From an uncultured Collinsella sp. (GTDB taxonomy: Bacteria > Actinomycetota > Coriobacteriia > Coriobacteriales > Coriobacteriaceae), in the NCBI GenBank assembly GCA_900540845.1, contig UQHS01000001.1:51508-115507 (forward strand): 64,000 nucleotides of DNA, read 5' to 3'. The translations under genes were made by a program, and so were the position numbers. The notes under the pieces were generated by a model. It ran no database searches and was not told the origin of the DNA. It saw only the letters and a program-made list of their open reading frames with translations. Numbering within the stretch: position 1 is the stretch's first letter; each line of letters starts with the position of its first letter. This document shows, piece after piece, positions 4,049-64,000 of this stretch.

Positions 4049-4106
4049 CAAAGCAGGCGACGGGGCCTCATTTTGCCCCACGTGCGCGGAGCCGCCAGCT
4101 CTTAGT

Positions 4107-23105: not shown

Positions 23106-23170
23106 CTAATGTAAGATTCTGGAACCTTCCAATGTATAATTCTGGAATATACTAATGTAAGATTATGGAG
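23106..23170. repeat. three tandem 23-bp repeats (CTAATGTAAGATTCTGGAA-like) in an AT-rich patch immediately upstream of the DUF4143 ATPase gene
   Basis: CTAATGTAAGATTCTGGAA (23106), CCAATGTATAATTCTGGAA (23129), CTAATGTAAGATTATGGAG (23152). Confidence 0.6.
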
Positions 23171-23194
23171 AAACGCATTGGTAGGGTGACCTTT

Positions 23195-24352: not shown

Positions 24353-24603
24353 CAGGCGGATTATGGGGCGCAGGCTGACGCCTATGATGGGCGCCCATTG
24401 TTCCCAACCTGTTAAGACAACGTGAGCCGGGTGCTTTTCTACGATAAAGCGCTCGGCTTTCCGCTATCCTAGTGACCTGTCGCGCTGCGGGTGCCGGGTC
24501 GCCCGGCGCGAAATGCCGAGCCGCGCTGTCTACGCGCCTTGGCAGTCTGTACACCAGCCGCCTGCTTACGGCACGGGGCGGCACAGATCAAAAGGAGGAA
24601 GCA

Positions 24604-26400
24604 GTGGCACAAGACTGCACCACCAACCCCGCCAACATGCATTCCATGCACACCCATACCTGTGGCGAGCTGCGCGCCGCCAACATCGGTGAGGAAGTCA
24701 CCCTCACCGGCTGGGTGAGCCGTCGCCGCGATCACGGCGGCCTGATCTTCTGCGACCTGCGCGACCGCGAGGGCATCACGCAGATCAACTTCGATCCCGA
24801 GCACTCGGACGGCGACGCCTTCAAGATTGCCGAGACCATGCGCCCCGAGTGGCCCATTCTCGTGCACGGCGTCGTGCGCGACCGCGGCCACGACGCGGTG
24901 AACCCCAAGCTGGCAACGGGCGAGATCGAGGTTTTGGTCGATCACGCTCAGGTGCTCAACCGCTCGAAGACCCCGCCGTTCCAGATCGAGGATGGCATCG
25001 AGACCGCCGAGGACACGCGCCTGCGCTATCGTTACCTGGACCTCCGCCGTCCCGAGATGGCCGCCCGCCTGCGCCTGCGCTCCGATTTCACCTTCGCCAT
25101 CCGCTCCGCCCTGCACGACCGCGCATTCACCGAGGTCGAGACGCCGGCGCTCTTCAAGTCCACGCCCGAGGGCGCGCGCGACTTCGTGGTGCCCAGCCGC
25201 CTGCAGCCGGGCAACTTCTACGCCCTGCCGCAGTCCCCACAGCTCCTCAAGCAGCTGCTTATGGTGGGCGGCGTCGAGCGCTACTATCAGGTCGCCAAGT
25301 GCTTCCGTGACGAGGATCTGCGCGCCGACCGTCAGCCCGAGTTCACGCAGGTGGACATCGAGATGAGCTTCGTCGAGCAGGATGACGTCATGTCCCAGCT
25401 TGAGGACGTTTTGTCCGACGCCTTCGCCCGCGTGGGTGTGGAGATGCCCACCCCGCTGCGTCGCATCTCCTATTGGGACGCCATGGACACCTATGGTTCC
25501 GATAAGCCCGACACGCGCTTCGGCATGGAGCTCGTCGACCTCACCGATGTCTTCGCCACCTCCGCGTTCAAGGTGTTCGCCAGCGCCGCCACCACCGAGG
25601 GCCACGTGGTCAAGGCCATCAACGCCAAGGGCGCCGGCACCTGGCCGCGTGCTCAGATCGACAAGCTTGCCAAGGTCGCCGCGACCTTCGGCGCCAAGGG
25701 CCTTGCTTGGATTGCCTTCCGCGAGGACGGCTCCATGAACAGCCCGATCGTGAAGTTCTTCACCGACGAGGAGATGGACGAGCTGCGCCGTCGCTGCGAC
25801 GTCGAGCCCGGGGACCTCGTGATGTTCGCCGCCGGCCCGCGTCTGGAGGCCAACGAGATCCTCGGCGGCATGCGCTCCCACATGGCCGACGCGCTCGAGA
25901 TCCCGCGCGAGGGCCACGATTTCCTGTGGGTCGTGAACTTCCCGCTGTTCCATTGGGACGAGGAGGGCAAGCGCTACGAGGCCGAGCATCAGCCCTTTAC
26001 GCTGCCCCATATCGACGAGCTGCACCTGCTCGACGAGGATCCGCTCAAGATGGGTTCGTGCACCTACGACTTCGTCATGGACGGCTTTGAGGCTGGCGGT
26101 GGCGGCATGCGTATCCACGACGCCGAGCTGCAGCTCAAGATGCTCGAGTTCATGGGCTTCACCGAGGAGCGCGCCCGCGCCCAGTTCGGCTTCCTTATGG
26201 AGGCCCTCGAGTTCGGTGCCCCGCCGATGGGCGGCTTCGCGCTCGGCCTCGACCGCGTGTGCATGCTGCTCGCCGGCACCGACTCCATCCGCGACGTCAT
26301 GGCGTTCCCCAAGACGAGCAGTGGCTCCGATCTCATGTCCTCCGCTCCGTCTGAGGTGAGCTTGGCCCAGCTCAAGGAGGTTGGCCTGCGCCTGGAGTAG
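24604..26400 (+). CDS. aspS: aspartate--tRNA ligase
   Basis: Anticodon-binding OB fold, class II motifs (FRDEDLRADRQPEFTQVDIE, GGGMRIHD...); RBS AAAGGAGGAAGCA immediately before the GTG at 24604. Confidence 0.9.
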   Translation: MAQDCTTNPANMHSMHTHTCGELRAANIGEEVTLTGWVSRRRDHGGLIFCDLRDREGITQINFDPEHSDGDAFKIAETMRPEWPILVHGVVRDRGHDAVNPKLATGEIEVLVDHAQVLNRSKTPPFQIEDGIETAEDTRLRYRYLDLRRPEMAARLRLRSDFTFAIRSALHDRAFTEVETPALFKSTPEGARDFVVPSRLQPGNFYALPQSPQLLKQLLMVGGVERYYQVAKCFRDEDLRADRQPEFTQVDIEMSFVEQDDVMSQLEDVLSDAFARVGVEMPTPLRRISYWDAMDTYGSDKPDTRFGMELVDLTDVFATSAFKVFASAATTEGHVVKAINAKGAGTWPRAQIDKLAKVAATFGAKGLAWIAFREDGSMNSPIVKFFTDEEMDELRRRCDVEPGDLVMFAAGPRLEANEILGGMRSHMADALEIPREGHDFLWVVNFPLFHWDEEGKRYEAEHQPFTLPHIDELHLLDEDPLKMGSCTYDFVMDGFEAGGGGMRIHDAELQLKMLEFMGFTEERARAQFGFLMEALEFGAPPMGGFALGLDRVCMLLAGTDSIRDVMAFPKTSSGSDLMSSAPSEVSLAQLKEVGLRLE

Positions 26401-30866: not shown

Positions 30867-31955
30867 ATGCAGGTGAATTATGGAATGAACAACAAGAATG
30901 ACATGGACGGCTTGATGTCCCGGCACGCGTTGTCTCGTCGTGCGCTGCTGCGCGCGGGGGTTGCCGGCGCGGGCCTTGTGGGCGCTTCGGCGCTGTCGGG
31001 CTGCGGCGATGCGGCTCAAGGTGCAGGCTCTGGCTCGGCGACGGGCGACTCCGAGCTTCGCAAGGTGACCTTTGCCCTCGATTGGACTCCAAACACCAAC
31101 CACACGGGCGTGTATGTTGCCGCCGAGCGCGGATATTACAAGGAGGCGGGGCTTGAGGTCGAGATCGTTCAGGCGCCCGAGAACGGTGCGGACGCTCTTG
31201 TCGCGGCAGGCGACGCGGAGTTTGGCGTGAGCTTCCAAGACACGATGGCGGCGTATGTTTCCGGCCCCGACGCGCTTCCCGTGACCGCCGTTGCGGCCAT
31301 TATCCAGCACAACACGTCGGGTATCATCAGCATGAAGGACAAGGGCATCACCGGTCCCGCCGAGATGGCCGGGCACACGTATGCGACGTGGGAGCTGCCC
31401 ATCGAACAGGGGATGATCGAGCGCTGCGTCGAGGCGGACGGCGGCGACTTCAGCAAGGTCGAGATGGTTCCCTCCACGGTGACCGATGAGGTGACGGCGC
31501 TGTCCACCGATCAGGTCGATTCCATCTGGATTTACTGGGCCTGGGCGGGAGAAAAGTGCAAGCTCGCGGGGCTCGACACGAACTATTTCGCGTTTGCCGA
31601 CATCGATCAGGTTTTCGATTTCTACACGCCGGTCATCATCGCCAACAACGACGTCATCGCAAAGGACGAGCAGCTGGTCAAGGCGTTTATCGACGCGACG
31701 CGCCGCGGCTATGAGGACTGCATCGCCGATCCGCAGGGGGCGGCGGAGGTGCTGCTCAAGGCAGCCCCTGAGCTCGAGAAGGAGCTCGTCGTCGCGAGCC
31801 AGGCCTACCTCGCCGATCAGTACCAGGCGGAGGCCGAATCGTGGGGCGAGATCGACCAGGATCGTTGGGACGCGTTCTTCGAGTGGGTGAGCGACCAAGG
31901 CTTTGCGGATGCGATTGAGCCCGGCGCCGGCATGACCGACCGTTTCTGCGCATAG
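30867..31955 (+). CDS. ABC transporter substrate-binding lipoprotein, NMT1/THI5-like (ThiY-like HMP-binding)
   Basis: Tat/Sec-like signal with lipobox LSGCGD; KVTFALDWTPNTNHTGVYVAAERGYYKEAGLEVEI is typical of the NMT1/THI5 fold. Confidence 0.8.
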   Translation: MQVNYGMNNKNDMDGLMSRHALSRRALLRAGVAGAGLVGASALSGCGDAAQGAGSGSATGDSELRKVTFALDWTPNTNHTGVYVAAERGYYKEAGLEVEIVQAPENGADALVAAGDAEFGVSFQDTMAAYVSGPDALPVTAVAAIIQHNTSGIISMKDKGITGPAEMAGHTYATWELPIEQGMIERCVEADGGDFSKVEMVPSTVTDEVTALSTDQVDSIWIYWAWAGEKCKLAGLDTNYFAFADIDQVFDFYTPVIIANNDVIAKDEQLVKAFIDATRRGYEDCIADPQGAAEVLLKAAPELEKELVVASQAYLADQYQAEAESWGEIDQDRWDAFFEWVSDQGFADAIEPGAGMTDRFCA

Positions 31956-48732: not shown

Positions 48733-50308
48733 GGCGTTTTTCGGCTCTTCGGTGGTTTCTGTGGGAGAGATTCCGGCATAGGCCCAGCTCAGCGGGCGAA
48801 AACAACGATCTGGAACTGAAACGGCCCCGGGAGGGGCCGTTTCCGCGTCATCCGCCTATGATTGCTAAGCCAAATTCAGACAACCGAAGAGGTGTGACGC
48901 ATGAAGAGTCTACTACTTCTCGCCCTCGGTCTGGCCCGCACGGTCGTCCTGGGCGCGCGCATCGAGGCCGAGCGCATCGTCGTGAGCGTCCGGCCCTACA
49001 AGCGCGAGCAGCGCCGCTGCCCCGTATGCGGCAGGGCCTGCGACTTCTACGACATGGCGAACCGCGGGGCCCCCAGGCTGTGGAGGGCGATGGACCTGGC
49101 GCGCTCGGCCTGCTACCTGGAGTACGCGCCCTGCAGGGTGCGCTGCCCGGAGCACGGCGTGCGCACCGAGGCCGTCCCCTGGGCGCGGCACGGGGCGCGC
49201 TTCACGCGCGACTTCGAGGACTGGGTGGCGTGGCTGGCGGTCCGCTGCACCGCCTCGGCGGTCTCCGGGCTCGCCCGCGTCGAGTGGCACAGCGTGGGCG
49301 GCGTGTGCAGGCGCGTCTACGCCGAGCTGGAGGCCGCGCGCGGCGCCTCGAGGTTCGACGGCGTGCGCCGCATCGGCATCGACGAGACGTCGTACAAGAA
49401 GGGCCACAAGTACGTCACGGTGGTCGTCGACCACGACCGCGGCTGCCTCATCTGGGCGCACGAGGGCACCGGCAAGGACGTGCTCAACCTGTTCCTCGAC
49501 GAGCTCACGCGCGAGCAGAGGCGCGCCATAGAGGTGGTGACCGCCGACGGCGCGAGGTGGATAAGGCAGCTGGTCAAGCGCCGCTGCCCCAACGCGAGGT
49601 GGGTCATGGACCCCTTCCACGTGGTCCAGTGGATGAACGACGCGCTCGACGCCGTGCGCTGCGAGGAGTGGAACGCCGCCAGGGCCGCCGCCAGGGCCGC
49701 CAGGCCCAGGCCCGAGGGCAAGCGCGGCAGGCCTGCCAAAGGCGAGCTGCCGCCCGAGGAGGTCAGGGCGCTCGAGGAGGAGGCGGCCTCCATCAAGGGC
49801 AGCCGCTACGCGCTCGTGAAGAACCCCGAGGACCTCACCGACGGCCAGAGGGCGAGGCTCGAGGCGCTCAAGAAGAGGGCCGGCTCGCGGCTGGTCAGGG
49901 CCTGGGAGCTCAAGGAGGACCTGCGGGCCGTCTTCCGGGCAGCCGACGGCTCCGAGGCCGCCGAGCTGCTCGACGACTGGATGCACAGGGCCGCCTACTG
50001 CAAGATCGCCAAGGTCGTCGCCGTGGAGAAGAAGGTGCGCCGCCGGCGCGACGACATCATCGCCGCAGTCGAGCTCGGCATCAGCAACGGGCGCGTAGAG
50101 GCCATCAACAACAAGATCAAGGTGACGGTGAGGATGGGCTACGGCTTCCGCAACACCGACAACCTCGTGGCCCTGCTCATGCTCAGGTGCGGCGACTGCC
50201 AGCCCCAGCTCCCGGGTCGCCCGGTGAAGGCGAGGAAGAAGGGCGTGAAGGGAGCGAAGAGCGTTGCTGCCTAGGCTAGCCCCTTGTCACACAAACTACC
50301 GAAGCCTC
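48733..50308 (+). mobile_element. ISL3-family insertion sequence with imperfect 21-bp terminal inverted repeats and 8-bp target-site duplication CGTTTTTC
   Basis: IRL GGCTCTTCGGTGGTTTCTGTG (48733-) versus the reverse complement of the right end, GAGGCTTCGGTAGTTTGTGTG (-50308), 16/21 identical; CGTTTTTC at 48725-48732 and again at 50309-50316; element GC content visibly higher than the flanks. Confidence 0.75.
48901..50274 (+). CDS. ISL3-family transposase
   Basis: N-terminal zinc finger CPVCG, DDE region GIDETSYKKGHKYVTVVVD..., C-terminal ...GYGFRNTDNLVALLMLRCG typical of ISL3 transposases; 457 aa. Confidence 0.85.
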   Translation: MKSLLLLALGLARTVVLGARIEAERIVVSVRPYKREQRRCPVCGRACDFYDMANRGAPRLWRAMDLARSACYLEYAPCRVRCPEHGVRTEAVPWARHGARFTRDFEDWVAWLAVRCTASAVSGLARVEWHSVGGVCRRVYAELEAARGASRFDGVRRIGIDETSYKKGHKYVTVVVDHDRGCLIWAHEGTGKDVLNLFLDELTREQRRAIEVVTADGARWIRQLVKRRCPNARWVMDPFHVVQWMNDALDAVRCEEWNAARAAARAARPRPEGKRGRPAKGELPPEEVRALEEEAASIKGSRYALVKNPEDLTDGQRARLEALKKRAGSRLVRAWELKEDLRAVFRAADGSEAAELLDDWMHRAAYCKIAKVVAVEKKVRRRRDDIIAAVELGISNGRVEAINNKIKVTVRMGYGFRNTDNLVALLMLRCGDCQPQLPGRPVKARKKGVKGAKSVAA

Positions 50309-50416
50309 CGTTTTTCTCAGTTGGGCGCACCGGGGTGAAGGCACCGCTGTACAGCGGGATCTCCACCCCGGGCATCGTATCCAACGAGCGCGCGCCTGGC
50401 AGGTCGCTTCATGGAG

Positions 50417-51925
50417 CTACAGTTTCAAAGTGCGGGCTACCTCCTGGGCACAGGCGAGGGCGTCGGCGATGGCGCTCACCACAAGGGACGAGCCACTGCG
50501 GGCGTCCCCGCAGACAAAGACCGCGCAAGAGGACGCATCGTCCCCCGTCTCCGCGTTGTTGCCGAGCACGCAGCGATGGCCTTGCGGTTCGCGCACGATC
50601 GGAAGGGGTCGGCTGTCCGCGGTTTGGGATAGGTGCGCGCCAAAGGAGCTGAAGACCTCGGGTTCGGGTCCGGTAAAACCGCAGGCAATGAGCACGAGCT
50701 GCGCCGGGATCTCATGTTCGGACCCCTTGATCCTGCGTGGCGATCCGTCGCTCCAGTCGAGGCCGGCAACGAGTAGCCCACGCGCGGCCCCCTGCTCGTT
50801 TCTCAGGACCTCGAGGGTATCCACGGCCCAAGAGCGCATCTCGCCGCCCGAGAGCGCGATGGCTTCTTGCTGGCCGTAGTCGGTCTTTTTGACATGGGGC
50901 CATTGCGGCCAGCCGTTCTGCGGCAGAGGCTGCTCGGGTGGCTCGGGCAGGAACTCTAGCTGCCGCACCGAGCGCGCGCCCTGGCGCACGGCCGTGCCCA
51001 CACAGTCGTTGCCGGTGTCTCCGCCGCCGATGACAACGACGTCGAGCCCGCGCGCCGAGATGGCGCTTGCGCCCGAATCGCCCTCGAGCACCGCGCGCGT
51101 GGCGGCGCTCAGGTAATCCACCGCGTAGACGACGCCCTTGGCATCGGCGTTTCGTGCCGCAAGCGCGCGGGGCGCCCTTGCACCGGTGGCGATCACCACG
51201 GCGTCGAAGGTCTCAAGCAGGTCGAGGGCGACCTCCTGCTGCGCGGCGTCGACGCCCAGGCGAAACTCGATGCCCAGCGATTCCATGAACTCGACGCGAC
51301 GGCTGACGATCGACTTGTCGAGTTTCATGTTGGGGATGCCATACATGAGCAGCCCTCCTGCGCGGTCGTCGCGCTCGACGACCGTGACGCGCGCCCCGCG
51401 CCTCGCAAGGTCCCATCCGCTCGCAAGGCCGGCGGGCCCCGACCCGATCACCGCCACGCGCGGAGCGTTCCTGCCAGGCTGCGGGAACCGGGCGGGTCCC
51501 CCGTGCTCCCATTCCCAATCGGAGAGTGCGCGCTCGTTATCGTGAATCGTTACGGGCTGCCCGTCGACGGTTCCGAGGTTGCATGCCGCCTCGCAGAGCG
51601 CCGGACACACGCGGCTCGTGAACTCGGGCAAGGGGGAAGTGATCGAGAGGCGCTCGACTGCCGCCTCCATGCGCCCGCGGTGGATGAGTTCGTTCCACTC
51701 GGGAATGAGGTTGTGGAGCGGGCAGCCGCTTGTGCGGGCGTGCCCAAACGAGGTGCCCGATTGGCAAAACGCCACGCCGCACATCATGCAGCGGCTCGCC
51801 TGGGCACGTCTGGTCGCCGTATTCGGCTCGATATAGAGCGGGTCGAAATCCTGCACGCGCTGGTCGACGGGACGCAGGGCGTGCGCCACCCTGTCCGTGG
51901 TGAGAAAAGCTCCCGGTTTACCCAT
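50417..51925 (-). CDS. gltD: glutamate synthase small subunit (NADPH-dependent)
   Basis: N-terminal Fe-S region (CMMCGVAFCQSG...CPLHNLIPEW), FAD/NAD Rossmann VAVIGSGPAGLA... Confidence 0.85.
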   Translation of the reverse strand: MGKPGAFLTTDRVAHALRPVDQRVQDFDPLYIEPNTATRRAQASRCMMCGVAFCQSGTSFGHARTSGCPLHNLIPEWNELIHRGRMEAAVERLSITSPLPEFTSRVCPALCEAACNLGTVDGQPVTIHDNERALSDWEWEHGGPARFPQPGRNAPRVAVIGSGPAGLASGWDLARRGARVTVVERDDRAGGLLMYGIPNMKLDKSIVSRRVEFMESLGIEFRLGVDAAQQEVALDLLETFDAVVIATGARAPRALAARNADAKGVVYAVDYLSAATRAVLEGDSGASAISARGLDVVVIGGGDTGNDCVGTAVRQGARSVRQLEFLPEPPEQPLPQNGWPQWPHVKKTDYGQQEAIALSGGEMRSWAVDTLEVLRNEQGAARGLLVAGLDWSDGSPRRIKGSEHEIPAQLVLIACGFTGPEPEVFSSFGAHLSQTADSRPLPIVREPQGHRCVLGNNAETGDDASSCAVFVCGDARSGSSLVVSAIADALACAQEVARTLKL

Positions 51926-51927
51926 GG

Positions 51928-54900
51928 CTAAGCCTCCTTGGTGGCGTTGTGCTTACAAGTGGTGGGCGTGAGCGCCCGGCGCCGCGGCGCGGTGATGATC
52001 TCGAACGCGCGCTCGAGGGCGGCTTCGTGGGAGAGTCCCGAGCGCTCTTCTTGGGCGACGATGTGGAGTACACGCTGGTACTCCACGGGGATCACCTTGA
52101 CAAAGGAGTGCTCGATGTCGGGGAAGCGATACAGCAGGCGTATGCCACGGGGGCTCGCCGTGCGACGGACGTGCTCCTCGATCAGCGCGTGGATGAGGGC
52201 GATCTCCTCGGTATCGGGGCGATTGAGTTCAACCGTCTCGGTGTTGACGCGCTCGGCGAGCGTGCCGTACTCGTCGTAGACGTAGGCGACGCCTCCTGTC
52301 ATGCCGGCTCCAAAGTTATGGCCCACCTCACCGAGGATGAGCGCCACGCCTCCCGTCATGTACTCGCAGCCGTGCGCCCCCACGCCCTCGACGACCACGG
52401 TGGCGCCGGAATTTCTGACTGCGAAGCGCTGGCCAGCCAATCCGTTGACAAATCCGCGCCCGCTCGTTGCTCCCATAAAGGCGACGTTGCCCACAATGAC
52501 ATTCTCGTCGAACTTGAAGGTCGCGCCTTCCGGCGGGGCAACGGAGAGGATGCCGCCGGAGAGTCCCTTGCCAAAATAGTCGTTCGCATCGCCGCGGACG
52601 GCAAGCGTCACGCCGGCGGGGATGAAAGCGCCAAAGCTCTGGCCGGCAGACCCCGTGCAGTTGACGGTGATGGAGCCTTCGGGAAGTCCGTTTGGATGTG
52701 CGCTGGTGACCGTGTGGCCGAGCATGGTGCCAGTGCAGCGGTTAACGTTGGCGATGTCGACGTTCAGCTCCACGGGAAGCATATGGGATCGCGCATCGGC
52801 GGTAAAGGGGATGAGAAGCGTCGCGTCGAGGGTCTCGTCAAGATGCGATGCGGCCGCCATGTGCGGAAGGTAATGGCCGCAGTCGGCGCCGGGGATGTGC
52901 GCCCCGAACTCGCATTGAGCGGGCGCGAGGACGGGCGCGAGGTCCAGAAGGTTCGACTTCCAGTTGCCGGCGTCCGGAATCTGTCGCAGGCACTCGACGT
53001 GCCCGACCATATCCTCAACGGTGGCGAAGCCCAGGCGCGCCATGACCTGACGGAGTTGTTCGGCGACGAACAGCATGAACCGCTCGACGTGTTCGGGCCT
53101 GCCGGTAAAACCGTGGCGCAACCGGCAGTTTTGCGTCGCGATGCCCGCCGGGCAGGTGTCCTGCTGGCAATCGCGCTGCATCAGGCAGCCCATGGCGATG
53201 AGCGGCATGGTGGCGAACCCGAACTCCTCCGCGCCGAGCAGGCATGCCACCGCCACATCGGTGCCGTCCATGAGCTTGCCATCGGCCTCGAGCACAACGC
53301 GAGAGCGCAGGCCGTTTTGCACGAGCGTCTGCTGCGTCTCGGCGAGGCCGAGCTCGAGGGGCAGACCGGCGTGCCAGATCGAGTCGCGTGGGGCCGCGCC
53401 CGACCCACCGTTGTGACCCGAGATCAAGATCTTGTCGGCACCTCCCTTGGCGACACCGGTGGCGATGGTTCCCACCCCGGTCTCGCTCACGAGTTTGACG
53501 CTCACGCGCGCCTGGGGGTTTGTGCATTTGAGATCGAAGATGAGCTCGGCCAGGTCCTCGATGGAGTAGATGTCGTGATGCGGGGGAGGCGAGATGAGGC
53601 TGATGCCGGGCGTGGATTGGCGCACCTCGGCGATCCAGGGATATACCTTCCTGCCGGGCAGGTGTCCGCCCTCACCGGGCTTCGCGCCCTGGGCCATCTT
53701 GATCTGGATCTCCGTTGCGGAGGCGAGGTACCGGCTCGTCACGCCAAAGCGGCCCGAAGCCACCTGCTTGATGGCAGAGTTGGCTGAATCACCGTTGGCG
53801 AGCGGCGTCTCGCGCCGCGGGTCCTCTCCGCCCTCGCCCGAATTCGACCGTCCATGCAGGCGGTTCATCGCGATGGCGAGACATTTGTGAGCCTCTCGGC
53901 TGATGGAGCCGTAGCTCATGGCGCCCGTGTTGAAGCGCGTCACGATGGAGCGAGCACTCTCGACGGCATCGAGCGGCAGCGGTGCGCGCCCCGCCGCATC
54001 GAAGTCGAGCAAGTCGCGCAGACGCACGACGCGTCCCGGTTTGTGCAGGCGCGCGCTGTACGCCTCGAACGCCGAGGCGTCGTCGAGACGCACCGCGCTT
54101 TGCAGCAAAAAGATGGTCTGGGGGTCGATGAGGTGGTCCTCGCCGTCCAGGGGGCGCCAGTTGGTGAGGCCGAGCGTGGGGAGCTGGGAGGGGGCGGGCG
54201 ACCTGTTCAGCGCGAGTGCCGCGTCGTAGCGTTTGTCAAGATCGCGTTGGACGTCGCCGATCCCCAGGCCGCCCACGCGGCTCACGGTGCCGGCGAAGCA
54301 CCGGTCGATGAGCTCGGGTGCCAGACCGACCGCCTCGAAAATCTGGGCGGAATGGTAGCTTTGCATGGTGGAGATACCCATCTTGGACATGATGGACACG
54401 ATGCCCGCGGTAGCGGCGCGGTTGTACCGTCCAATGCCCTCGGGGGCACTTAACTCGACTCCATCTGCCGTCACGAGGTCGTGTTGGGCGGCAAGGGCGG
54501 CAATGTGGGCATGGGCGCCGTAGGGCCAGATGCCGCTCGCCGAGTAACTCACCAGTGCTGCGAAATCATGGGCGGAAAGCGCGTCGCCGGTTTCAACGAT
54601 CAGGTCCGCGAACGTGCGAAGCCCTTCCCGCATCAGATGATTGTGGACCGCTCCCACGGCGAGCAGGGAGGGAATGGGGACCTCTCCCGACCCGGCGCGG
54701 TCGGAGAGCGCCACGATGTTCGCCCCCGCGCGAACCGCCGCCTCAACCTCGTTGCAAAGGGAGGTGAGGGCCTGGTCGAGCGCATCGGCACCGGCGTCGC
54801 GTCGATAGGCGGCGCGGAATGCGCGCGCGTGGAACCCCGTGCGATCGATTGAGATGATGGCGCGGTGCTGCTCCTCCGTGAGCAGCGGGGAGTCGAGGCG

Positions 54901-56631
54901 GAGAAGCTGGCAGGCGTTGCGGCTATCTTCGAGCAAGTTGCCGTGATTGCCCAGATACAGCACGGTCGAGGTCACCACTCGCTCTCGCAGGGCGTCGATG
55001 GGTGGATTCGTTACCTGGGCGAACAGCTGGTAGAAGTAGTCAAAGAACGAGCGGGTCTTGGTGGAGAGGCAGGCGAGCGGCGCGTCGATGCCCATGGAGG
55101 CGAGAGGCACCTTGCCCGCGATCGCCATGGGGCGCACCACCTCGTCGATGTCGTCCCAATGGTGACCCAGTTTGGCGGCGTCCACGGCCGTCAGCCCACA
55201 CGCCTCCTCGCGCGGCCCGTCGGCCACCAGCTCGCTGTGCTCAGGCGTGATGTCGTCGAGCGTGAGCATTTCCTCGGCGATCCAGTCGCGGAACGGCTTG
55301 AGCTTCGCCATGCTTCCGCGAAGCTCGTCGTTATACACCACGCGTGCCTTCGAAAAATCCACCTCGATCATCTCTCCCGGACCGAGCAGGCCCGCGGTGA
55401 GTACGTTTTCTGGATCAATCTCGATGGTGCCGACCTCCGAGGAGAGCAGGAAGCGATCGTCTCGGGTCACGTAGTAGCGTGCGGGGCGCAAACCGTTGCG
55501 GTCGAGGGCGGCGCCGAGAGTCCGTCCATCGGTGAACGCGATGGCGGCGGGGCCGTCCCAAGGCTCCATGAGCATGGACTGGTATGCATCATAGGCGCGC
55601 CGCTCGGGCGAGAGCGTCTTGTTATGATCCCAGGGCTCGGGTATGAGCATGGACACCGCGCGGGTGAGGGGCCTGCCGTTCATAACCAGGAATTCAAGGA
55701 CGTTGTCGAGGATGGCAGAGTCGGATCCCTCTCGATTGATGATGGGCAAAACGCGGTCGAGATCATGTTGGAGCACGGGAGAGTACAGGTTTGGTTCGCG
55801 CGCGCGAATCCAGTTGACGTTGCCCTTCAGGGTGTTGATCTCGCCATTGTGAACGATGAAGCGATTGGGGTGGGCTCGTTCCCAGCTGGGCGTGGTGTTG
55901 GTCGAGTAACGAGAGTGGACGAGCGCGACGGCGGTTTTGACGGCGGCGTCGTTGAGGTCGGAGTAGAAGCGCCGCATTTGGGTGGCGACGAGCATGCCCT
56001 TGTACACGATGGTCCGTGCGCTCATGGAGCAGATGTAGAAGATTTTCCCATTGAGTGCGGGATCGGCATCCGCGCGTTTTTCGATTTCGCGCCGGCACAC
56101 GTAGAGTGCCCGCTCAAAGTCGTCGCCGCGCGGAATCGATTGGGGACGGCCCAAAAACGCCTGCATGATGGTCGGCATGCAGGCCCGTGCAGTCGAGCCG
56201 AGGTCGTGCGGATCAACGGGGACGGAGCGCCAAAAGAGCAGTGGGATGCCGCATGCGGCGCAGCCCTCCTCGACGATGCGTCGTGCGTCCGCTACACCGC
56301 GCTCGTCTCGCGGCAGGAAGAGCATCGCCACGCCGTAATCGCCCTCAACGGGCAAAAGGTGGCCGCATCTCTGCGCCTCCTTGCGAAAGAATCGGTGGGG
56401 AACCTGAAAAAGGATGCCGGCACCGTCTCCGGTGTTGCGCTCGAGGCCAACGCCGCCTCGGTGCTCAAGGTTGACGAGGACGGAGAGAGCGTCATCGAGA
56501 ATCTGATGGCTGCGCTCCCCCTTGATGCTCGCCAGCGCGCCGATGCCGCAGGCGTCGTGTTCGAATTCCGGCCGATAGAGCGTCTGTCGCCCCTGAGGGT
56601 TCGTGGCGGGCGACGCGGTTGACTGTCCCAT
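51928..56631 (-). CDS. gltB: glutamate synthase large subunit
   Basis: Class II amidotransferase N-terminus ([12 protein letters not shown]), FMN-binding and GXGXG domains; about 1567 aa from MGQSTASP...; the ORF-track start at 56772 is an upstream extension. Confidence 0.9.
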
Positions 56632-56994
56632 TGCCGTCTCCTTTGGGTCGGGGTGCACGGGGAATCGTTCGGGCGGAATGGTACGTTCGGTTGGTTGCGC
56701 CTGGTTTGCAGACGTGTTTCCTGCAGGTTTCCAGTAGGGGAACATCTGAATACTGTCCCTCCGTATACCCATTTACCAGCGGTTATGAGAAAACTGAGAC
56801 TCTTTGCGCGCAAGCGTGATTTTTTGCCCGTGCTGCGCTGTCAACATTCTTTACGCAGGCAGAGTGCGGTACGCTACGATATGTTTCACGCCTGCAACGT
56901 GGCGGAAATTGTGCCGAAACGAATGGCGTATAGGCTGCAATCGTCCGTCAGCAACAGCGTCGCCCGCGGCGACGCGCCACGAAGGGAGTATCTG

Positions 56995-59085
56995 ATGGCC
57001 GATCTCACCGACCGCTTTGGCACGATGGTCTTCTCCGAAGACGTCATGAAGAAGTGGCTACCCAAAGACGTGTACAAAAAGCTCGCTGCAACCATCGAGG
57101 AGGGCCAGCCGCTCGACTTGGATGTGGCGAACGCCGTCGCCCATGCCATGAAGGAGTGGGCGATCTCCCACGGCGCCACGCATTACGCGCACTGGTTCCA
57201 GCCGCTCTCCGGCATCACGAGCGAAAAGCACGACAGCTTCCTCGAGCCCAACCACGATGGCACCGCCATCACCAAGTTCTCGGGCAAGGCGCTCATCAAG
57301 GGCGAGCCCGACGCCTCGAGTTTCCCCAACGGCGGCTTGCGCGCCACCTTCGAGGCGCGTGGATATACCGCATGGGACGCCACGAGCCCGGCGTTTATCA
57401 AGGACGATGTGCTGTGCATCCCCACTGCCTTTTGCAGCTACACCGGCGAGGCGCTCGACAAGAAGACCCCGCTGCTGCGCTCCATGACCGTCCTCGACGA
57501 GCAGGCCAAGCGCGTGCTCGCCCTGTTTGGCAAGAAGCCCAAGCGCGTGGTGCCCTCGGTAGGCGATGAGCAGGAGTACTTCCTCATCAAGAAGGACGCC
57601 TATCGCCGCCGCCGGGACCTGGTGATCTGCGGCCGCACGCTGTTCGGCGCCGCCCCGGCTAAGGGCCAGGAGCTCGAGGAGCATTACTTCGGCGCGATTC
57701 GCCCCACTGTCTCCGCCTACATGAAGGACCTCGATAACGAGCTGTGGGCGCTCGGCATCCCGTCCAAGACCAAGCACAACGAGGTAGCGCCCTGCCAGCA
57801 CGAGCTCGCCCCCGTGTACTCTGAGCTCAATGAGGCCGTGGACAACAATCTCCTCGTCATGGAAAAGATGAAGCTCATCGCCAGCCGTCACGACCTCGTG
57901 TGCCTGCTGCACGAGAAACCGTTTGAGGGCATCAACGGAAGCGGCAAGCACAACAACTGGTCGCTCGGCACCGCCGATGAGAACCTGCTCGACCCGGGCG
58001 ACACCCCGTTGGAGAACCTGCAGTTCATCGTGTTCCTTACTGTGGTGATCGAAGCGGTGGACAAGTACCAGGATCTGCTGCGCGCAAGCGTGGCGAGCTG
58101 CGGCAACGATCATCGCCTGGGGGCGAACGAGGCGCCGCCTGCGATCGTGTCGATCTTCCTGGGTGATCAGCTCACCGAGGTCGTCGAGATGATCATGGAC
58201 GGCGAGGCGAGCGTTCACGCCACCACCGACACCCTCACCTTTGGCACAGTGATCCTGCCCAATCTGGAGCAGGACAACACCGACCGCAATCGAACCTCCC
58301 CCTTCGCCTTCACGGGCAACAAGTTCGAGTTCCGCGCCGTGGGCTCCGAGGCGAACGTCTCCGATGCGAATATGGTTCTCGACACCGCCGTCGCGGCGTC
58401 CCTGCGCGACTTCGCCGACGCGCTCGAGGGCACGCCCGAGGACCAGTTCCAGGAGGCGACACTCGCGTACTGCGCCGAGCACCTGCGCGCGCATCGCCGC
58501 ATCCTCTTCTCGGGCGACGGTTACTCCGATGCGTGGGAGAAGGAGGCCGAGGAGCGCGGCCTGTGCAACTTCCGCACCACCGCCGACGCCCTGCCCGCGT
58601 TCGTCGCCGAGAAGAACATCAAGCTCTTCTCCGAGATGGGCGTGCTCACCGAGGTTGAGACCGTGTGCCGCTACGAGGTGAAGCTCGAGAAGTACAACAA
58701 GCTCATGAACATCGAGGCGACCACGATGGTGCGCGAGGCGCGCCGCACGTACCGCCCGGTGATCACCGCTTACGCCACCAAGGTCGCCAAGGGTCTGGAG
58801 ACCATCCGCGCCGCTGGCGCCGAGGTCGCGATGGCCTCCGAGCAGGCCACGCTCAACGAGTTGTGCGAGGGCATCACTGCCATCAACGAGTCCATCGCGC
58901 GTCTGGACGAGGCGCATGCCAAGGCGGAGTCCATGGCCGACGCCCAGCTGCAGGCGAATTGCTACGCGCATGAGGTCGCACCCGTCATGGCCGACCTGCG
59001 GGCCGCCGTTGACGCGATGGAAGAAATCGTGGCGGCTGATTACTGGCCGGTGCCGACCTACGATGACATCTTGTTCTACGTGTAG
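56995..59085 (+). CDS. glnN: glutamine synthetase type III
   Basis: 696 aa; [30 protein letters not shown]... and the long GS-III architecture; RBS GAAGGGAG. Confidence 0.85.
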
Positions 59086-59191
59086 GGTCTCTGCTCTCGC
59101 GCGCAGCAGCACGGAGAACGAGGTGAGCACGGGCGGTCTTTCATGTCCGCCCGCGCTCGCTGCTTAAAGATTCCTTTTGCAGTGTTTGACG

Positions 59192-60124
59192 TTAAGGTTT
59201 GTACCTGGAAATTTTCTCCCAAGTGCATGGAAATCCCATCGCCGCGAGAATGTCGGTCCGCTCGATCGCATTGCTTTTTGCTAGGTAGCCTTCGATGAGC
59301 CTTGCCAGCTCCTTTTTAAATCCGAGGAACCTGTCTTTTGGGAGCAGATATCTCAGAGCGATGACCACTGCGAACAAATCGTTTTTGCCCTGGGTGCACT
59401 GACTGTTCTTTTTCATAATGCCGAGTTTTTGGTGGAGGTCGGTATCGGGGATAACGGAGTGTGTCTTGTGCGTGATGAGACGCTCACCATGCGCACATAC
59501 GTTGCGGAATATAACGGGAATCTTAAGGAACTGCTCGAGTTCCTTCTCGTTGGCTAACATAAACTCCTTGGATACCGCGGCCTTCTCGCCCGGCGCGAGG
59601 AACGAGTACATTTTTGAGATCTGTCCAAACGTGGTGGCGTTGACGAGAACCCATAGAGGTGCGTTATGGTGGCTTGTTCGATAGTGGACGAGATAGCCGT
59701 GGTCGGCGTTCCTGTTTGCCAGCGCGCTAAGAATTCGAATGAGCTTTGTTATGCCCTGGGTGTGCTTTGGTGAGTTTGGATAGTTGCATGGATCCAAATA
59801 GGCGTTTTGCGCTTCCCCATGTTTAGAGCAGAAAGAATACGACACTGCGTTTCTCATCTTGCGTTCGATGTGCGTCAGGTTGCGTAAGAACAGTTCGCGC
59901 AGAGAGAAGTCGAGGTTGTAGAGTGCGACCAGGTTGGAGAACGAGGCGCCTTCTTTATACTTTCGGGTGGAAGGGTCGCGTAGGAGCCACTTATATCCGT
60001 TGATGAGCGCAAAATACCCAATGTCTCGTAGCTGCTCTTCCGCATACGGTGCATCTTCTATAAGAAGGCCGTCGTTACCCAACTTTTCGATTTGCTGTTC
60101 GTATGTCGCGAAGGTTTTGGCCAT
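59192..60124 (-). CDS. Abi_2-family abortive-infection protein (AbiD/AbiF-like)
   Basis: 310 aa; conserved Abi_2 block ...IFRNVCAHGERLI...; first gene of a visibly AT-richer island. Confidence 0.75.
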   Translation of the reverse strand: MAKTFATYEQQIEKLGNDGLLIEDAPYAEEQLRDIGYFALINGYKWLLRDPSTRKYKEGASFSNLVALYNLDFSLRELFLRNLTHIERKMRNAVSYSFCSKHGEAQNAYLDPCNYPNSPKHTQGITKLIRILSALANRNADHGYLVHYRTSHHNAPLWVLVNATTFGQISKMYSFLAPGEKAAVSKEFMLANEKELEQFLKIPVIFRNVCAHGERLITHKTHSVIPDTDLHQKLGIMKKNSQCTQGKNDLFAVVIALRYLLPKDRFLGFKKELARLIEGYLAKSNAIERTDILAAMGFPCTWEKISRYKP

Positions 60125-60133
60125 GACGCCCCT

Positions 60134-60166
60134 TGGAAAAAAGAGAGCCTGCAGGCTCTCTTTCCG
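60134..60166 (-). terminator. perfect palindromic hairpin with T-run located 15 nt upstream of the abi start (terminator/insulator or 5'-UTR structure)
   Basis: AAAGAGAGCCTGCAGGCTCTCTTT; on the minus strand it is followed by TTTTTTCC. Confidence 0.4.
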
Positions 60167-60547
60167 GTCCCAGGCTTCGCAGGTATCTGGAACCTAATCA
60201 CTGGTTAAAAGTATAGGAGTCGTTCCCCGGAAGCCAAAAAGCGGGCGGAGCCGCATCTTGTTCACACAAAAAGAGACCGGATGCCCGCCCGCGTCATAAC
60301 TCTTTGAAGATTTTGTCGGCCTTGCGGTAGTGCATCTCATCCAGCATAGGGGGGCTACGGAAATAAAGAACGGAAGCGCGCGAAGCATGAGACAGCAGGC
60401 GAATTTCTGGGTTGGGTGAGCAGCAATGGCAACGGTCGCATGCTGGCCCCAGAGGTCAACGTTCAAGGGTGTTTATTATCCAATGGTAGAATGCGGGCTA
60501 GTGTTGTAAGTATTTTGGCGATTTGTTGTCTTTTGGACGGAGCGGCT

Positions 60548-63500
60548 ATGTTTGACGGTGCGATCGACATGGATTCAAGGATTGATGCTTGGAAGAAGAA
60601 GCTGCTCGATCTTGGCAAGAGAAATCGACTGTTGAACCATCGGGATACGAAGCGCGGAAGCATCCGCATTGTTTCTCCCAGCTCCCTTGCTCTCTGGCAA
60701 TCCTTCGTCGAGGAGGAGAGTCCCATCGTATTTTCCTACATCAATGAGGAAAGCGAGTTTGACGACGCTGGTGATGGCGGGCAGAAGATTGAAGTGGTTA
60801 GTGGCAACGTCGAAACCAACAAGACCCTCCCCGAGCAGCAAAAGACCCTGCGTTCGCTAAGGAATAAGGCACGATCCTTTTCTAACGAGCAAGGTGTCAA
60901 TGCTCTTTACCTCGCATTCGGATTTCTAAATTGGAAGGAGTCGCCTTCTTCCAAGCAATTCATCCAGTCCCCGCTCATCCTCGTTCCCGTTTACCTGCAG
61001 TGGGAATCGATCGCGTCTCCATTTGAGCTGCGGCTTCATGACGATGAGATCGTCATCAATCCCACCCTCGCCTACAAGATGGAGAATGATTTCGGCGTTA
61101 CGCTCCCTCCCTTTGAGAGTGGCGACTCACCTGCAGATTACTTCAATACCTTGAATAGACTTGTAGCCTCGCAGGGATGGAGTGTTGAGCAGGGCACCTG
61201 CCTTACGCTACTTTCCTTCCTAAAGATAAACATGTACAACGATCTCGAAAAGCATCGGGAGTCCATTTCAGAGCACCCTGTCGTTCGGGCCCTAGCTGGC
61301 GATGCTTCAGGATTGACCGTTGATGTCTCGACTCTCGACGGCTATGATCACGACGCAAGCACTACTCCAGCAGACTCTTACCTCATCGTTGACGCCGATG
61401 CTAGTCAGATTGATGCGATTGAATGCGCCAAGATGGGTGCGAGCTTTGTTTTGCAAGGTCCCCCCGGCACCGGGAAGAGCCAAACAATCACGAATATCAT
61501 TGCCGAATGCCTTGCAGACGGCAAGAAGGTCCTGTTCGTTTCTGAGAAGATGGCTGCGCTCGACGTTGTTCATCGCAGACTGAAAGACGCCGGACTTGAA
61601 GATTTTACCCTTGTTCTGCACAGCTATAAAGCGAATAAGAAAGATGTTCTCGATCAGCTGGGGCGTTCGCTCGAGCTATCCGATAACAAGGTCAAGCTCG
61701 CTGACGAGGCATATAGGTCGCTTGATCAGCTGCTTTCCGACAGAAAGAGGCTGAATGATTACTCTTCACAGCTTCACGAGATTATTGCGCCGCTCAACAA
61801 GAGCATCTTTGACGCGAACGGAGAGATTGCCGAATGCTGCGACGTTGAGGATATTGTATTTTCGATTGACGACGTTCGGAATGTTTCTTCCGGTACCTAT
61901 CTGAGCATGTGCGGCGTTCTTAATCGCTATGGCAGCGTCTTAAACTCTATGCACGAGGATATCGAAGAGAATCCTTGGCATGACACACTGCTTACCTTTG
62001 TGGGGAACGAGCTCAGGCACGATTTGGTGTCTAAGGCTGCGATGTGCAAATCCAAGCTGCGGGCAATATTGGCTTTGAGCGACGAGGCGGCGGAGCATTT
62101 TGGTATCGAGGCGGAGTCCCTTCCCAGTTTGAAAAACGCTGCTGCCGCCTTGGGGTCCGCCTCGCGTTCTCCTAAGGTGCTCGCCAGTTGGATAGAATCG
62201 GAAGACCTTGGCTCGCTAGCCCGCGAATGCGAAGTTTGGGACGAGAAGCGTAGACTCCTTTATGGCCTACTCGATGAAATCGAAATCGTTCGTGGGGAGC
62301 TTGGGGAAAAGCGGCTTTGGACTGATAGCGGCGTCCGTCTCTCCAATGATGATCTTAGTGAGCTGCTTGCAGAGTATTCTCGGGATCTTGAGGTGAAGTT
62401 TGGAACGAACGAGATACTTGGGGTTTGGAGAAAGACGGAATCTGTCGATCGCGTTAAAGCGGTCCTAGCCGAACTGAAGGGGCATGCTGACCACCTGGTG
62501 GAATCGAGGCATAGGTCAAGAAGGTCCTTTGCTCGGGATATTGAGCAGATTGATTATCTGCCCGTTCAGCAGCGTTTCGATTCCCGATATGACAGAGATT
62601 TCCTAGAGAAACGGGGTTCCTATCTGACGGATCGCTCAGATCTGAAAAACGTTGTACTCCTGAAATCTACCGTCCTTCATTCAAACAAAGATACTCTTCT
62701 CGCCCTTGAAGGAGCATGCAGGCTCGCTGACCACAGAGCATGGGCGGAGGAATCCCTTGAGTTGGGCGAGTTGTCCGCCCTTGAGGAAGAGATTGCCTCG
62801 ACATGTGAGGCAGAAATCAATCAGATTCCCTATAACGAAATCTACCTTCGTTACAAAACGACCAGCTCATCTTTCGCAAAGATATTTAACTCGCAGTACA
62901 AGAGCGACCGCTCGATGGTCGGTTCGCTCATGAAAGGCCTAAGCGGAAAGCCGACCGATGACCAGGTGCTTTCGGTGCTCTCCATGCTCAGGCGTCGAGA
63001 TGAGTTACTTGTTTGGCGCGACTCCTCTCCTCGTTGGGCAGAGCTTTGTTCATTGGAGTCCGCTTTACGCAACCAGTTTAGCGATGATGTGTTCAGCTTG
63101 GACTATAGGTCCATCTTCCAGCGTTATCGCGATGAGTATGATGACGCTTTCGCTGAAACGTGCTCGCAATACGAAGCGGATCTCTCCCTCTTTGAAAGCT
63201 ACGTAATTCCTGGAACGAGTATCGATCGTCAGATTGTTGTTGATGAAATCACGCTGCTTTCGGATATCTCTGGGGAAAGGCGATGGTTCGAGGAAAACGA
63301 TGAATTCCTGAAGAGGCTTCTTGGTGACTGCTACCTTCGAGAGGAGACAGATTTCGATTCGCTGGATTCCGTGTATCGTACGTTTGCGCTTCTTTGCCGT
63401 TGCGATGTGGCCCGTTGCAATGCCCTCGCCCTTCTTGCCTCGTCAAAGGCTGAGCATGCGTCGTTTTTACAAAAGTATGGGCCTGATTATGTTGGCATCT

Positions 63501-64000
63501 GTTCCGACTGGGGCACCTTGATTTCTAAGATTAATTGGGCGCGAGAATTTTCCGCTTTCGTCGCGGCTGAAGGCATCACGGTTACTTGGGACTTCGTTGC
63601 CCGGTCCTGCGAAGATCGGGATTTCGCTACACGCTGTGGTGATCTTAAGGTTAGAATCGAAGCGGCTCTCGAAGACGTGGAAAAAACGGTTGCCTGGTTT
63701 GCCAATCTTTTTGAGGCTGATTCTGACGTTGGGGGAATGCCAGTCTCGCGGCTTTTTGACAAATTGGAGGCGTGTTCGGAAAACCTTGAGGCTCTTGAGG
63801 AAATTCTCGACTACCGAAAGGTGAGGGCAGACTGTGATGCACTTGGACTTGGTGGCTGCATTGCAGCCCTAGAGACGGCAGAAATACCTCATGATCGCAT
63901 TATTCCAGTTTTCAAGAAGCGCTTCTTTAGGTTATGGCTTGATAGCGTTTTGCCTGATTATCCTGCAGTTGCGAGCTTTCGTCATCGAACTCAGGAAGAG
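60548..64000 (+). CDS. DUF4011-domain Upf1-like SF1 helicase, 3' end beyond window (at least 1151 aa)
   Basis: N-terminal DUF4011 pattern (WKKKLLDLGKRNRLLNHRD...GVNALYLAFGFLNWKE...SPLILVPVYL); Walker A FVLQGPPGTGKSQTI of AAA_11; frame open to the window end; RBS GGACGGAGCGG. Confidence 0.7.
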   Translation, partial: MFDGAIDMDSRIDAWKKKLLDLGKRNRLLNHRDTKRGSIRIVSPSSLALWQSFVEEESPIVFSYINEESEFDDAGDGGQKIEVVSGNVETNKTLPEQQKTLRSLRNKARSFSNEQGVNALYLAFGFLNWKESPSSKQFIQSPLILVPVYLQWESIASPFELRLHDDEIVINPTLAYKMENDFGVTLPPFESGDSPADYFNTLNRLVASQGWSVEQGTCLTLLSFLKINMYNDLEKHRESISEHPVVRALAGDASGLTVDVSTLDGYDHDASTTPADSYLIVDADASQIDAIECAKMGASFVLQGPPGTGKSQTITNIIAECLADGKKVLFVSEKMAALDVVHRRLKDAGLEDFTLVLHSYKANKKDVLDQLGRSLELSDNKVKLADEAYRSLDQLLSDRKRLNDYSSQLHEIIAPLNKSIFDANGEIAECCDVEDIVFSIDDVRNVSSGTYLSMCGVLNRYGSVLNSMHEDIEENPWHDTLLTFVGNELRHDLVSKAAMCKSKLRAILALSDEAAEHFGIEAESLPSLKNAAAALGSASRSPKVLASWIESEDLGSLARECEVWDEKRRLLYGLLDEIEIVRGELGEKRLWTDSGVRLSNDDLSELLAEYSRDLEVKFGTNEILGVWRKTESVDRVKAVLAELKGHADHLVESRHRSRRSFARDIEQIDYLPVQQRFDSRYDRDFLEKRGSYLTDRSDLKNVVLLKSTVLHSNKDTLLALEGACRLADHRAWAEESLELGELSALEEEIASTCEAEINQIPYNEIYLRYKTTSSSFAKIFNSQYKSDRSMVGSLMKGLSGKPTDDQVLSVLSMLRRRDELLVWRDSSPRWAELCSLESALRNQFSDDVFSLDYRSIFQRYRDEYDDAFAETCSQYEADLSLFESYVIPGTSIDRQIVVDEITLLSDISGERRWFEENDEFLKRLLGDCYLREETDFDSLDSVYRTFALLCRCDVARCNALALLASSKAEHASFLQKYGPDYVGICSDWGTLISKINWAREFSAFVAAEGITVTWDFVARSCEDRDFATRCGDLKVRIEAALEDVEKTVAWFANLFEADSDVGGMPVSRLFDKLEACSENLEALEEILDYRKVRADCDALGLGGCIAALETAEIPHDRIIPVFKKRFFRLWLDSVLPDYPAVASFRHRTQEE

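Follow-up and report, generated by a model that had tools for sequence, protein, structure and literature searches.

A low-GC islet between glnN and a tRNA-Glu gene of a gut Collinsella carries an Abi_2 gene with a predicted structured leader RNA and a gene for a DUF4011 helicase-nuclease

Between the stop codon of glnN and a tRNA-Glu(UUC) gene, an uncultured Collinsella sp. carries a short, low-GC islet with two divergent genes, an Abi_2-family gene preceded by a putative structured leader RNA, and a gene for a large protein with a DUF4011 domain, a superfamily 1 (SF1) helicase and a predicted nuclease. The islet is cut by the right-hand edge of the 64,000-nucleotide stretch that was analysed here (the window; GenBank assembly GCA_900540845.1, contig UQHS01000001.1, positions 51,508 to 115,507). 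In consecutive intervals of 500 nucleotides (nt), GC content is 0.61-0.70 across positions 50000-59000 and 0.49-0.55 from 59000 to the window end, and at a resolution of 1 kb the window has no second segment of more than about 1 kb with a GC content this low. The break falls at position 59096, 10 nt past the glnN stop codon, and the island has a GC content of 0.512 against 0.649 in its flanks, in agreement with the abrupt drop in base composition described in a first-pass annotation of this DNA. That annotation had located the drop after a glnN terminator, whereas the GC-rich hairpin that lies between the convergent glnN and abi genes (59125-59158; 12-nt arms, 92% complementary) is itself part of the insert, because the island begins already at 59096. 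The hairpin is a probable bidirectional terminator.

The remainder of the islet is provided by a metagenome contig (L093) that was found via the exact Abi protein sequence, and whose reverse complement is 100.000% identical to window positions 53548-64000 (10,453 nt). This contig extends 6,124 nt past the window edge and completes an element of 7,138 bp that ends at window-equivalent position 66233, such that the last 4.9 kb of the window (59096-64000) represent the left two-thirds of the whole 7.1-kb islet. Downstream of the large open reading frame (ORF), which is 1,871 codons long on L093, lie tRNA-Glu(UUC), bioY and murT. The Abi_2 and DUF4011 genes are the only genes of the insert; no recombinase, integrase or transposase was found in the 7,138 bp, and terminal inverted repeats of more than 6 nt were not detected at the island ends. 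Alignment of the window, L093 and the related contig L001 to an empty site in Collinsella intestinalis DSM 13280 (L005) places a direct repeat of 6 bp, TCTGCT, around the island, with the left copy at 59090-59095 and the right copy outside the window, at window-equivalent 66228-66233; the empty site has one copy. At the right junction (L093 and L001, window-equivalent 66228-66255), the island ends 15 nt upstream of the tRNA-Glu 5' end, and TCTGCT overlaps a TATACT box that resembles the -10 element of the tRNA-Glu gene. Therefore, the insertion must have substituted island DNA for the -35 region of the tRNA-Glu promoter.

The same arrangement is present on four more contigs, the helicase proteins of which are 95% identical across the shared 1150 aa. 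Between the window and the L001 lineage, identity amounts to 86.9% at the 3' end of glnN, 94.2% for abi and 96.6% for the helicase gene, and because the island is more similar than the flanking glnN, the comparison fits an exchange of the islet between lineages after their divergence. On three of the related contigs (L001, L004 and L094; 93-95% identical), the abi-helicase intergenic region contains 93 extra nt, at window 60323-60332 (L001:1853-1937). This segment is bordered by CGGTAGTG repeats, and the window lineage appears to have deleted it via these short repeats.

The site of insertion is variable throughout the genus. The window glnN product, a type III glutamine synthetase, is 94% identical to that of C. 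intestinalis DSM 13280, the closest reference genome, and 83-91% identical to those of 79 other Collinsella genomes. In C. intestinalis DSM 13280 the site is cleanly empty, with 25 nt from the glnN stop codon to tRNA-Glu. Neither the Abi_2 gene nor the helicase gene was detected within 10 kb downstream of glnN at 80 Collinsella genome loci, many of which are on contigs that end shortly past glnN (within a few hundred bases for many contigs of metagenome-assembled genomes, in keeping with a site that varies between strains). The gap between glnN and tRNA-Glu ranges from 25 nt to 9.2 kb across Collinsella; in most genomes it is 171-1,225 nt long and the tRNA is inverted. For instance, the 5.7-kb gap of L080 holds genes for a GntR regulator, a GH4 glucosidase, a phosphotransferase system (PTS) EIIC component and a beta-lactamase-fold protein, which make up a sugar-utilisation cassette, and the 9.2-kb gap of L056 (GC 0.46) holds hsdR, hsdS and hsdM of a type I restriction-modification (R-M) system. 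The gap reads as a general cargo hotspot that sometimes carries defence genes, and the islet as an accessory, horizontally acquired and compositionally foreign element. The empty site in C. intestinalis, the lack of copies at the 80 loci and the GC break agree with the view taken in the first-pass annotation that this is a defence island. In addition, Collinsella sp. UMGS1083 (L007, 12094-21958) has an apparent second gltB-glnN copy between glnN and tRNA-Glu, suggestive of a segmental duplication at this hotspot.

The Abi_2 gene of the islet (59192-60124, minus strand) encodes a protein of 310 aa in the AbiD-AbiF family that, by family, would be a HEPN RNase toxin. The assignment to Abi_2, already made at first pass, is borne out by matches to Pfam Abi_2 (PF07751; E = 9.6e-42, 143.8 bits with a cut-off of 25.6, profile positions 2-183 of 184), to PADLOC AbiD (6.5e-61, 204 bits) and to PbAbiF in the Protein Data Bank (PDB entry 8vz6; 8.8e-14). 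The HEPN Rx4-6H motif can be identified as R207-NVCA-H212 (RNVCAH), at a position analogous to that of R210/H215 of PbAbiF. AbiF-family proteins are HEPN RNases, and in Clostridioides difficile AbiF is toxic, with an upstream non-coding RNA (ncRNA), RCd22, that ends in a terminator and whose deletion raises abiF mRNA 17-fold (PMC12373285, PMC12737573). As quoted in these papers, the structure of PbAbiF (PDB 8vz6) consists of a dimer and two ncRNA copies, and R210/H215 are needed for activity. An intergenic ORF of 90 aa on the same strand (60194-60466) was treated as spurious, as it has no family match and overlaps the leader and promoter of the Abi_2 gene.

Upstream of abi, and separated from its ATG by exactly 15 nt as had been noted at first pass, lies the perfect 24-nt palindrome AAAGAGAGCCTGCAGGCTCTCTTT (60140-60163). 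It is the sole perfect palindrome with arms of at least 9 nt in the 64-kb window, and arms of at least 12 nt arose in 2 of 200 first-order Markov simulations. On the abi sense strand, the palindrome gives a stem of 10-12 bp and is followed by six consecutive T (three of them closing the stem), the ribosome-binding site (RBS) AAGGGG and the ATG, and has the shape of an intrinsic terminator. Together with a second hairpin it forms a predicted structured leader RNA of the Abi_2 gene, 71 nt in length (60132-60202, minus strand), that comprises helix P1, helix P2 (the palindrome, 60140-60163, minus strand) and a U-run, and scores 91.6 bits with a covariance model (CM R1). Helix P1 (60166-60194, minus strand) pairs GGUUCCAG with CUGGGACC around the conserved 13-nt loop AUACCUGCGAAGC, and five of its eight pairs covary. 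A sigma-70-like promoter, TTGGCT-16-TATACT (60210-60237, minus strand; a consensus match only), can be identified approximately 7 nt upstream of the leader 5' end.

This upstream layout is common to Abi_2 relatives whose proteins are 43-75% identical and whose hosts have a GC content of 0.35-0.70; in them, promoter boxes are followed, approximately 7 nt on, by AGUGAUUAGG, by P1 with the AUACCUGCGAAGC loop, and by P2 and a U-run. All homologous leaders have a TTGAC(A/T/G) -35 box at the same offset, and most have a TATAAT-like -10 box. In the seed alignment of nine sequences, 97.5% of cells are paired and 10 of 18 pairs are compensatory; none of 500 shuffles matches the observed covariation score, slid registers collapse, and RNAalifold returns the same two helices. 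With 13 sequences in the alignment, compensatory pairs number 13 of 18. Non-seed matches to CM R1 lie directly upstream of Abi_2 genes on three further contigs (L110, 60 bits; L154, 78 bits; L155, 48 bits). In the relatives, P2 has free sequence capped by a tetraloop, and since the loop varies between UGCG, UUCG and UGUG, the perfect palindromy of the window copy is incidental. The palindrome is best described as the predicted terminator helix P2 of a conserved, covarying leader RNA, and not as a free-standing element. A hairpin and T-run just upstream of the start codon are also present in 22 of 30 more distant Abi_2 relatives; those at 26-34% identity have other leaders, which mostly still place a hairpin and T-run before the start codon.

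Searches of Rfam 15 gave no match for the leader in the window or in relatives of this Abi_2 clade. The abiF motif (RF03085) was rejected as the identity of the hairpin, as neither window 60100-60560 nor the relatives gave a match at E <= 10; the positive control, from phage phiC2, scored 37.6 bits. AbiF/AbiFr and RCd22-AbiFCd resemble the module described here in having an Abi_2-family HEPN RNase toxin with an Rx4H motif, and in the layout of promoter, short structured ncRNA, Rho-independent terminator, RBS and toxin gene (PMC12373285). The RNA of the islet differs from theirs in that it is not RF03085, and in that it has one conserved hairpin (P1) and a terminator hairpin rather than two abiF motifs. 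By analogy with these systems, the leader may represent a second RNA type beside the AbiF ncRNAs and is a candidate antitoxin.

Several further observations concern this region and its relatives. On L110 (4001-4763), the Abi_2 relative that follows a good leader match spans two frames (4001-4549 and 4548-4763), suggestive of a frameshifted toxin gene with the RNA retained. An orphan second leader copy of 41 bits, with its own TTGACA promoter, is found on L155 (1322-1392) just downstream of the Abi_2 gene, with no Abi ORF after it, and could be either a spare antitoxin that acts in trans or what remains of a tandem module. Another conserved leader, ACGGAAAGAACCUUGG...CCAAGGUCUGCAGGGGGNUCCAUUUAUGGNNCCCC followed by a U-run, lies approximately 130 nt upstream of distant Abi_2 genes on L108, L109, L132 and L136; it is positioned 3' of TTGACA / TATAAT-like promoters and has no Rfam match (L108 at the gathering threshold). 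Lastly, directly upstream of the abi -35 box, the window has an inverted repeat, GCGGGCGG / CCGCCCGC (60241-60292, 36 nt between arms), followed by TTTTT on the minus strand. This repeat may act as a terminator and shield the abi promoter against antisense transcription that arrives from the helicase side.

The divergent gene on the plus strand has a frame that is open from 60350 and a likely ATG at 60548, from which direct translation gives 1150 codons to the window edge (60548-64000); the complete gene encodes 1,871 aa and stops at window-equivalent 66163. Because its frame continues past the window edge, the gene is missing from the list of ORFs. Its product combines a DUF4011 domain, an SF1B helicase and a Vsr-like nuclease. 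DUF4011 occupies residues 18-178 (60599-61081, plus strand; Pfam, 8e-38), and the N-terminal 276 aa are modelled with confidence by AlphaFold2 (AF2), with no structural neighbour in the PDB. In the full-length sequence, the Pfam match to AAA_11 is split into residues 284-347 and a second stretch further on. GPPGTGKSQT is found at residues 304-313, with the Walker A motif GPPGTGKS (helicase motif I) at 61457-61480 on the plus strand, and motif II, DEASQ, is found at residue 1250, outside the window and 946 residues after Walker A, and therefore approximately 940 residues are inserted within RecA1. The C-terminal half of the protein, which also lies outside the window, was characterised by profiles, with Pfam matches to AAA_12 at residues 1309-1506 and to MTES_1575, of the Vsr / DUF559-like restriction-endonuclease fold, at residues 1555-1651; a match of the tail to DUF3320 is weak (E 0.005, below threshold). 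These results sustain what had been said of the large protein at first pass, namely a divergent ORF cut by the window edge with DUF4011, GPPGTGKSQT and a long helical region, and the expectation of an AAA_11/AAA_12 Upf1-like helicase with a nuclease past the window, DUF3320 being the part with a weak match.

In the AF2 model of residues 1-1150 (pLDDT 82, pTM 0.42), the insertion in RecA1 is an all-helical arm, for which Foldseek returned just generic coiled-coil, SMC or MukB matches with TM <0.12. The arm includes three tandem helical repeats of approximately 91 aa (residues 655-746, 747-837 and 838-930; 62510-63337, plus strand), which are detected by profile-profile comparison (hhalign 98-99.3%, E 3e-13 to 3.5e-20) and not by a BLASTP self-comparison. 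The common relatives of approximately 1,670 aa have a single copy, and the difference in length of approximately 190 aa is due to three repeat copies versus one. The window fragment can be aligned end-to-end with just one other cluster at 50% identity. In an alignment of 50 sequences, the helicase motifs and residues D1582, E1599, D1601 and H1606 of the nuclease domain are nearly invariant; all are present here, and the four residues are taken to be catalytic. The family is very large and falls into 5,205 clusters at 50% identity (E <= 1e-30).

When compared with known defence systems, the large protein has its best profile match in PADLOC PDC-S37 (PDLC05009; 1378 bits, E = 0, profile positions 6-569 and 662-1544 of 1550), and, judged by profile score, PDC-S37 would be its PADLOC label; the protein is approximately 320 aa longer than this profile, from repeat expansion. 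PDC families are 'guilt-by-embedding' predictions, mostly not validated by experiment (PMC12988326), and no text was found in the literature on PDC-S37 or on an anti-phage ProA. The NCBIfam profile NF058533, 'anti-phage protein ProA', gives one continuous match over residues 9-1837, corresponding to profile positions 357-1903, such that the first approximately 356 N-terminal positions of ProA are lacking here. Hhe (Gao et al. 2020; PDLC02194, NF042953) shares with the large protein the combination, in one polypeptide, of an N-terminal DUF4011, an SF1 helicase and a Vsr-like endonuclease at the C terminus, and homology is strong over the helicase-nuclease half (625 bits in PADLOC, 869 bits in NCBIfam). 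The central helical arm, which has the three tandem repeats here, is not alignable to the Hhe profile, and the host here is an actinobacterial gut anaerobe. As a single gene, Hhe protects against lambda, T3, T7 and PhiV-1, and defence is lost in its nuclease mutant E1731A (10.1101/2022.06.16.496414), with T7 class II DNA-metabolism genes and Bas63 g40 behaving as triggers (10.1101/2024.10.10.617714). PADLOC MkoA matches at 96 bits.

The large protein had been likened to Nhi at first pass, and Nhi does share the combination of helicase and nuclease in a single protein and a broadly similar working. The Nhi profile, however, matches at only 15.9 bits (E 0.00098-0.0084), with no stretch significant alone, and its domain order and nuclease type differ; since the similarity is confined to the P-loop, Nhi membership was rejected in favour of the families above. 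The only sequence relatives of the large protein in the PDB, and only over the ATPase core, are the SF1B helicases Upf1, Sen1 and IGHMBP2. The alignment to them takes in helicase motifs I, II, V and VI (E 1e-9 to 1e-5), and there are Pfam matches to AAA_11 and AAA_12, but these proteins lack the approximately 940-aa insertion between motifs I and II, DUF4011 and the nuclease, and the gene here is a prokaryotic accessory gene. The large protein thus appears to be a clear homologue of validated single-gene helicase-nuclease defences, and the equivalog of neither Hhe nor ProA.

Whether the two genes of the islet function together can be judged from their relatives. Helicase relatives at 65%, 68% and 38% identity neighbour genes for Fic, AAA + DUF2201, RNase_T, ATPase_2/DUF234, AAA_14/DUF4143, an integrase with P4 cII, and RES, and Abi relatives at 50-56% identity neighbour a type I R-M system with AbiJ, McrBC, and HigB/HTH with AAA_14/DUF4143. 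In neither set was the other gene of the islet found nearby. Because relatives of each lack the other as a neighbour, it was concluded that the Abi_2 gene and the helicase gene are probably two independent modules sitting together by chance, and not the pair that the first-pass annotation implied in describing the Abi_2 gene as facing the helicase. A single two-gene system, for instance with the helicase as sensor, the HEPN RNase as effector and a shared divergent control region, would account for the fact that the genes are adjacent and divergent in all island-bearing Collinsella contigs and travel as one 7.1-kb unit. These contigs, however, belong to one recent element lineage (94-97% identical) and count as a single observation, and PADLOC models both genes as single-gene systems. 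Furthermore, DNA homology with Abi modules of 73-75% identity on short contigs (L139-L142) is bounded on one side by the promoter or leader (60247 or 60203) and on the other by the abi stop codon (59199), with none beyond the abi promoter. Joint function of the two genes is therefore very improbable indeed. The large protein could also be a housekeeping helicase for nucleic-acid repair or quality control, a paralogue of the RecD/Upf1 type, in view of a core that resembles Sen1, IGHMBP2 and Upf1, the sheer size of the family, a best match (PDC-S37) that is not validated, and the large DUF4011 gene of Pseudomonas aeruginosa, which is a core gene (PMC10250203). Yet the gene at this locus is accessory, low in GC and inserted, with no copy found in the first 10 kb downstream of glnN at the 80 loci or in the empty site of the closest reference, and its relatives lie among toxin-antitoxin, integrase and R-M genes. 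The family is also frequent on plasmids, with 561 records in Bacteria and haloarchaea, and homology to validated Hhe and to NCBI's ProA is strong and full-length. A housekeeping role is accordingly quite improbable, and in profile searches the helicase groups with defence families rather than with housekeeping RecD/Upf1, as the first-pass annotation had supposed.

The nature of the palindrome and the origin of the islet each admit another explanation. As a perfect palindrome of 24 bp between a promoter-like site and the abi start codon, AAAGAGAGCCTGCAGGCTCTCTTT could serve as a DNA operator for a dimeric repressor of abi or of the divergent helicase gene, rather than as an RNA element. In the 93-95%-identical contigs, however, the central TGCA is changed to CGCA, which breaks the palindrome and keeps the stem intact, and in distant relatives the arms are wholly changed yet complementary, with eight of ten P2 pairs compensatory in the 13-sequence alignment. 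A T-run follows the hairpin on the abi sense strand in all, weak Rfam matches are to terminator stems of small RNAs, and no DNA-binding regulator is encoded in the island, making an operator very improbable. The islet as a whole might be what is left, after decay, of a larger integrative element (a prophage, satellite or integrative and conjugative element) that targeted tRNA-Glu, as it adjoins a tRNA gene, has a low GC content and is flanked by a 6-bp repeat; a more distant helicase relative, moreover, lies beside an integrase and a P4 cII-like gene. This origin is improbable, as the insertion is 15 nt upstream of the tRNA 5' end and not in the 3' end, where integrases usually act, and the islet has no integrase, att-length repeat or other phage genes. 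In addition, 2.9 million viral contigs contain no close relatives of either gene, and a distant profile search of them found just three loci.

The explanation that best fits the locus, and is considered quite likely, is that of a 7.1-kb acquired islet, inserted between the glnN stop codon and tRNA-Glu(UUC) at a site with varied cargo by lineage, that carries two independent single-protein anti-phage modules. In the first module, by analogy with RCd22-AbiF and PbAbiF-AbiFr, the terminator hairpin of the leader would end most transcripts before the toxin gene, and the short leader RNA would bind the RNase and neutralise it, as in type III toxin-antitoxin systems. The leader would in this way be both an attenuator and an RNA antitoxin. 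Phage infection would upset the balance between RNA and toxin, resulting in indiscriminate RNA cleavage and abortive infection. For the second module, the mechanism suggested by Hhe is that ATP-driven translocation on nucleic acid senses intermediates of phage replication or DNA metabolism, and that sensing licenses the C-terminal endonuclease to cut DNA, whereby infection would be stopped.

A number of points weigh against this explanation. The islet lacks a recombinase, and microhomology, instead of duplication of a target site, could account for the 6-bp repeat. For the large protein, the best match is to a candidate family that is not validated (PMC12988326), the score against ProA (1257.3 bits) is below the cut-off of 1500, and the score against Hhe NF042953 (868.6 bits) compares with an equivalog cut-off of 2000; moreover, as the core gene of P. 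aeruginosa illustrates, the DUF4011 family is not always accessory (PMC10250203). The divergent genes share an intergenic region of 423 nt and may be co-regulated. As for the leader, its single-sequence fold is only mildly above shuffles (z = -2.0), and helix P1 rests on comparative evidence because the single-sequence minimum free energy (MFE) structure does not reproduce it. The leader transcript, its termination and the defence role of both modules at this locus are predicted from the DNA.

Two observations were made elsewhere in the window. A gene for a 395-aa AAA_14 + DUF4143 ATPase (Pfam 8e-26 and 5e-46; 23165-24352, plus strand) lies alone in a low-GC pocket of approximately 1.3 kb (GC 0.53) between ppc (19984-22923) and aspS (24472-26400), and resembles a further small insertion; other members of its family are encoded close to a DUF4011 helicase relative (L088) and to Abi_2 relatives (L143 and L145). 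At 30957-31053 (plus strand), ARAGORN reports an unusual 97-nt 'tRNA-???' whose anticodon has two bases; this is probably either a spurious call or a degenerate tRNA-like element.

Both modules of the islet are of known kinds already in defence databases, with a leader RNA that is absent from Rfam and the threefold repeat of the arm as modest variant features, and current understanding is not overturned by the locus. The islet provides a natural example of gut Actinomycetota swapping small defence cargo at a fixed hotspot with no visible recombinase. It also provides a compact Collinsella representative of the very large and mechanistically unexplained family of DUF4011 helicase-nucleases (approximately 5,200 clusters at 50% identity), most members of which are annotated just as DUF4011 or DUF3320. 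The most useful product of the analysis is the predicted leader RNA of the Abi_2 gene, which is small, covarying and easily testable, and which would extend the AbiF/ncRNA toxin-antitoxin principle to a second RNA type.

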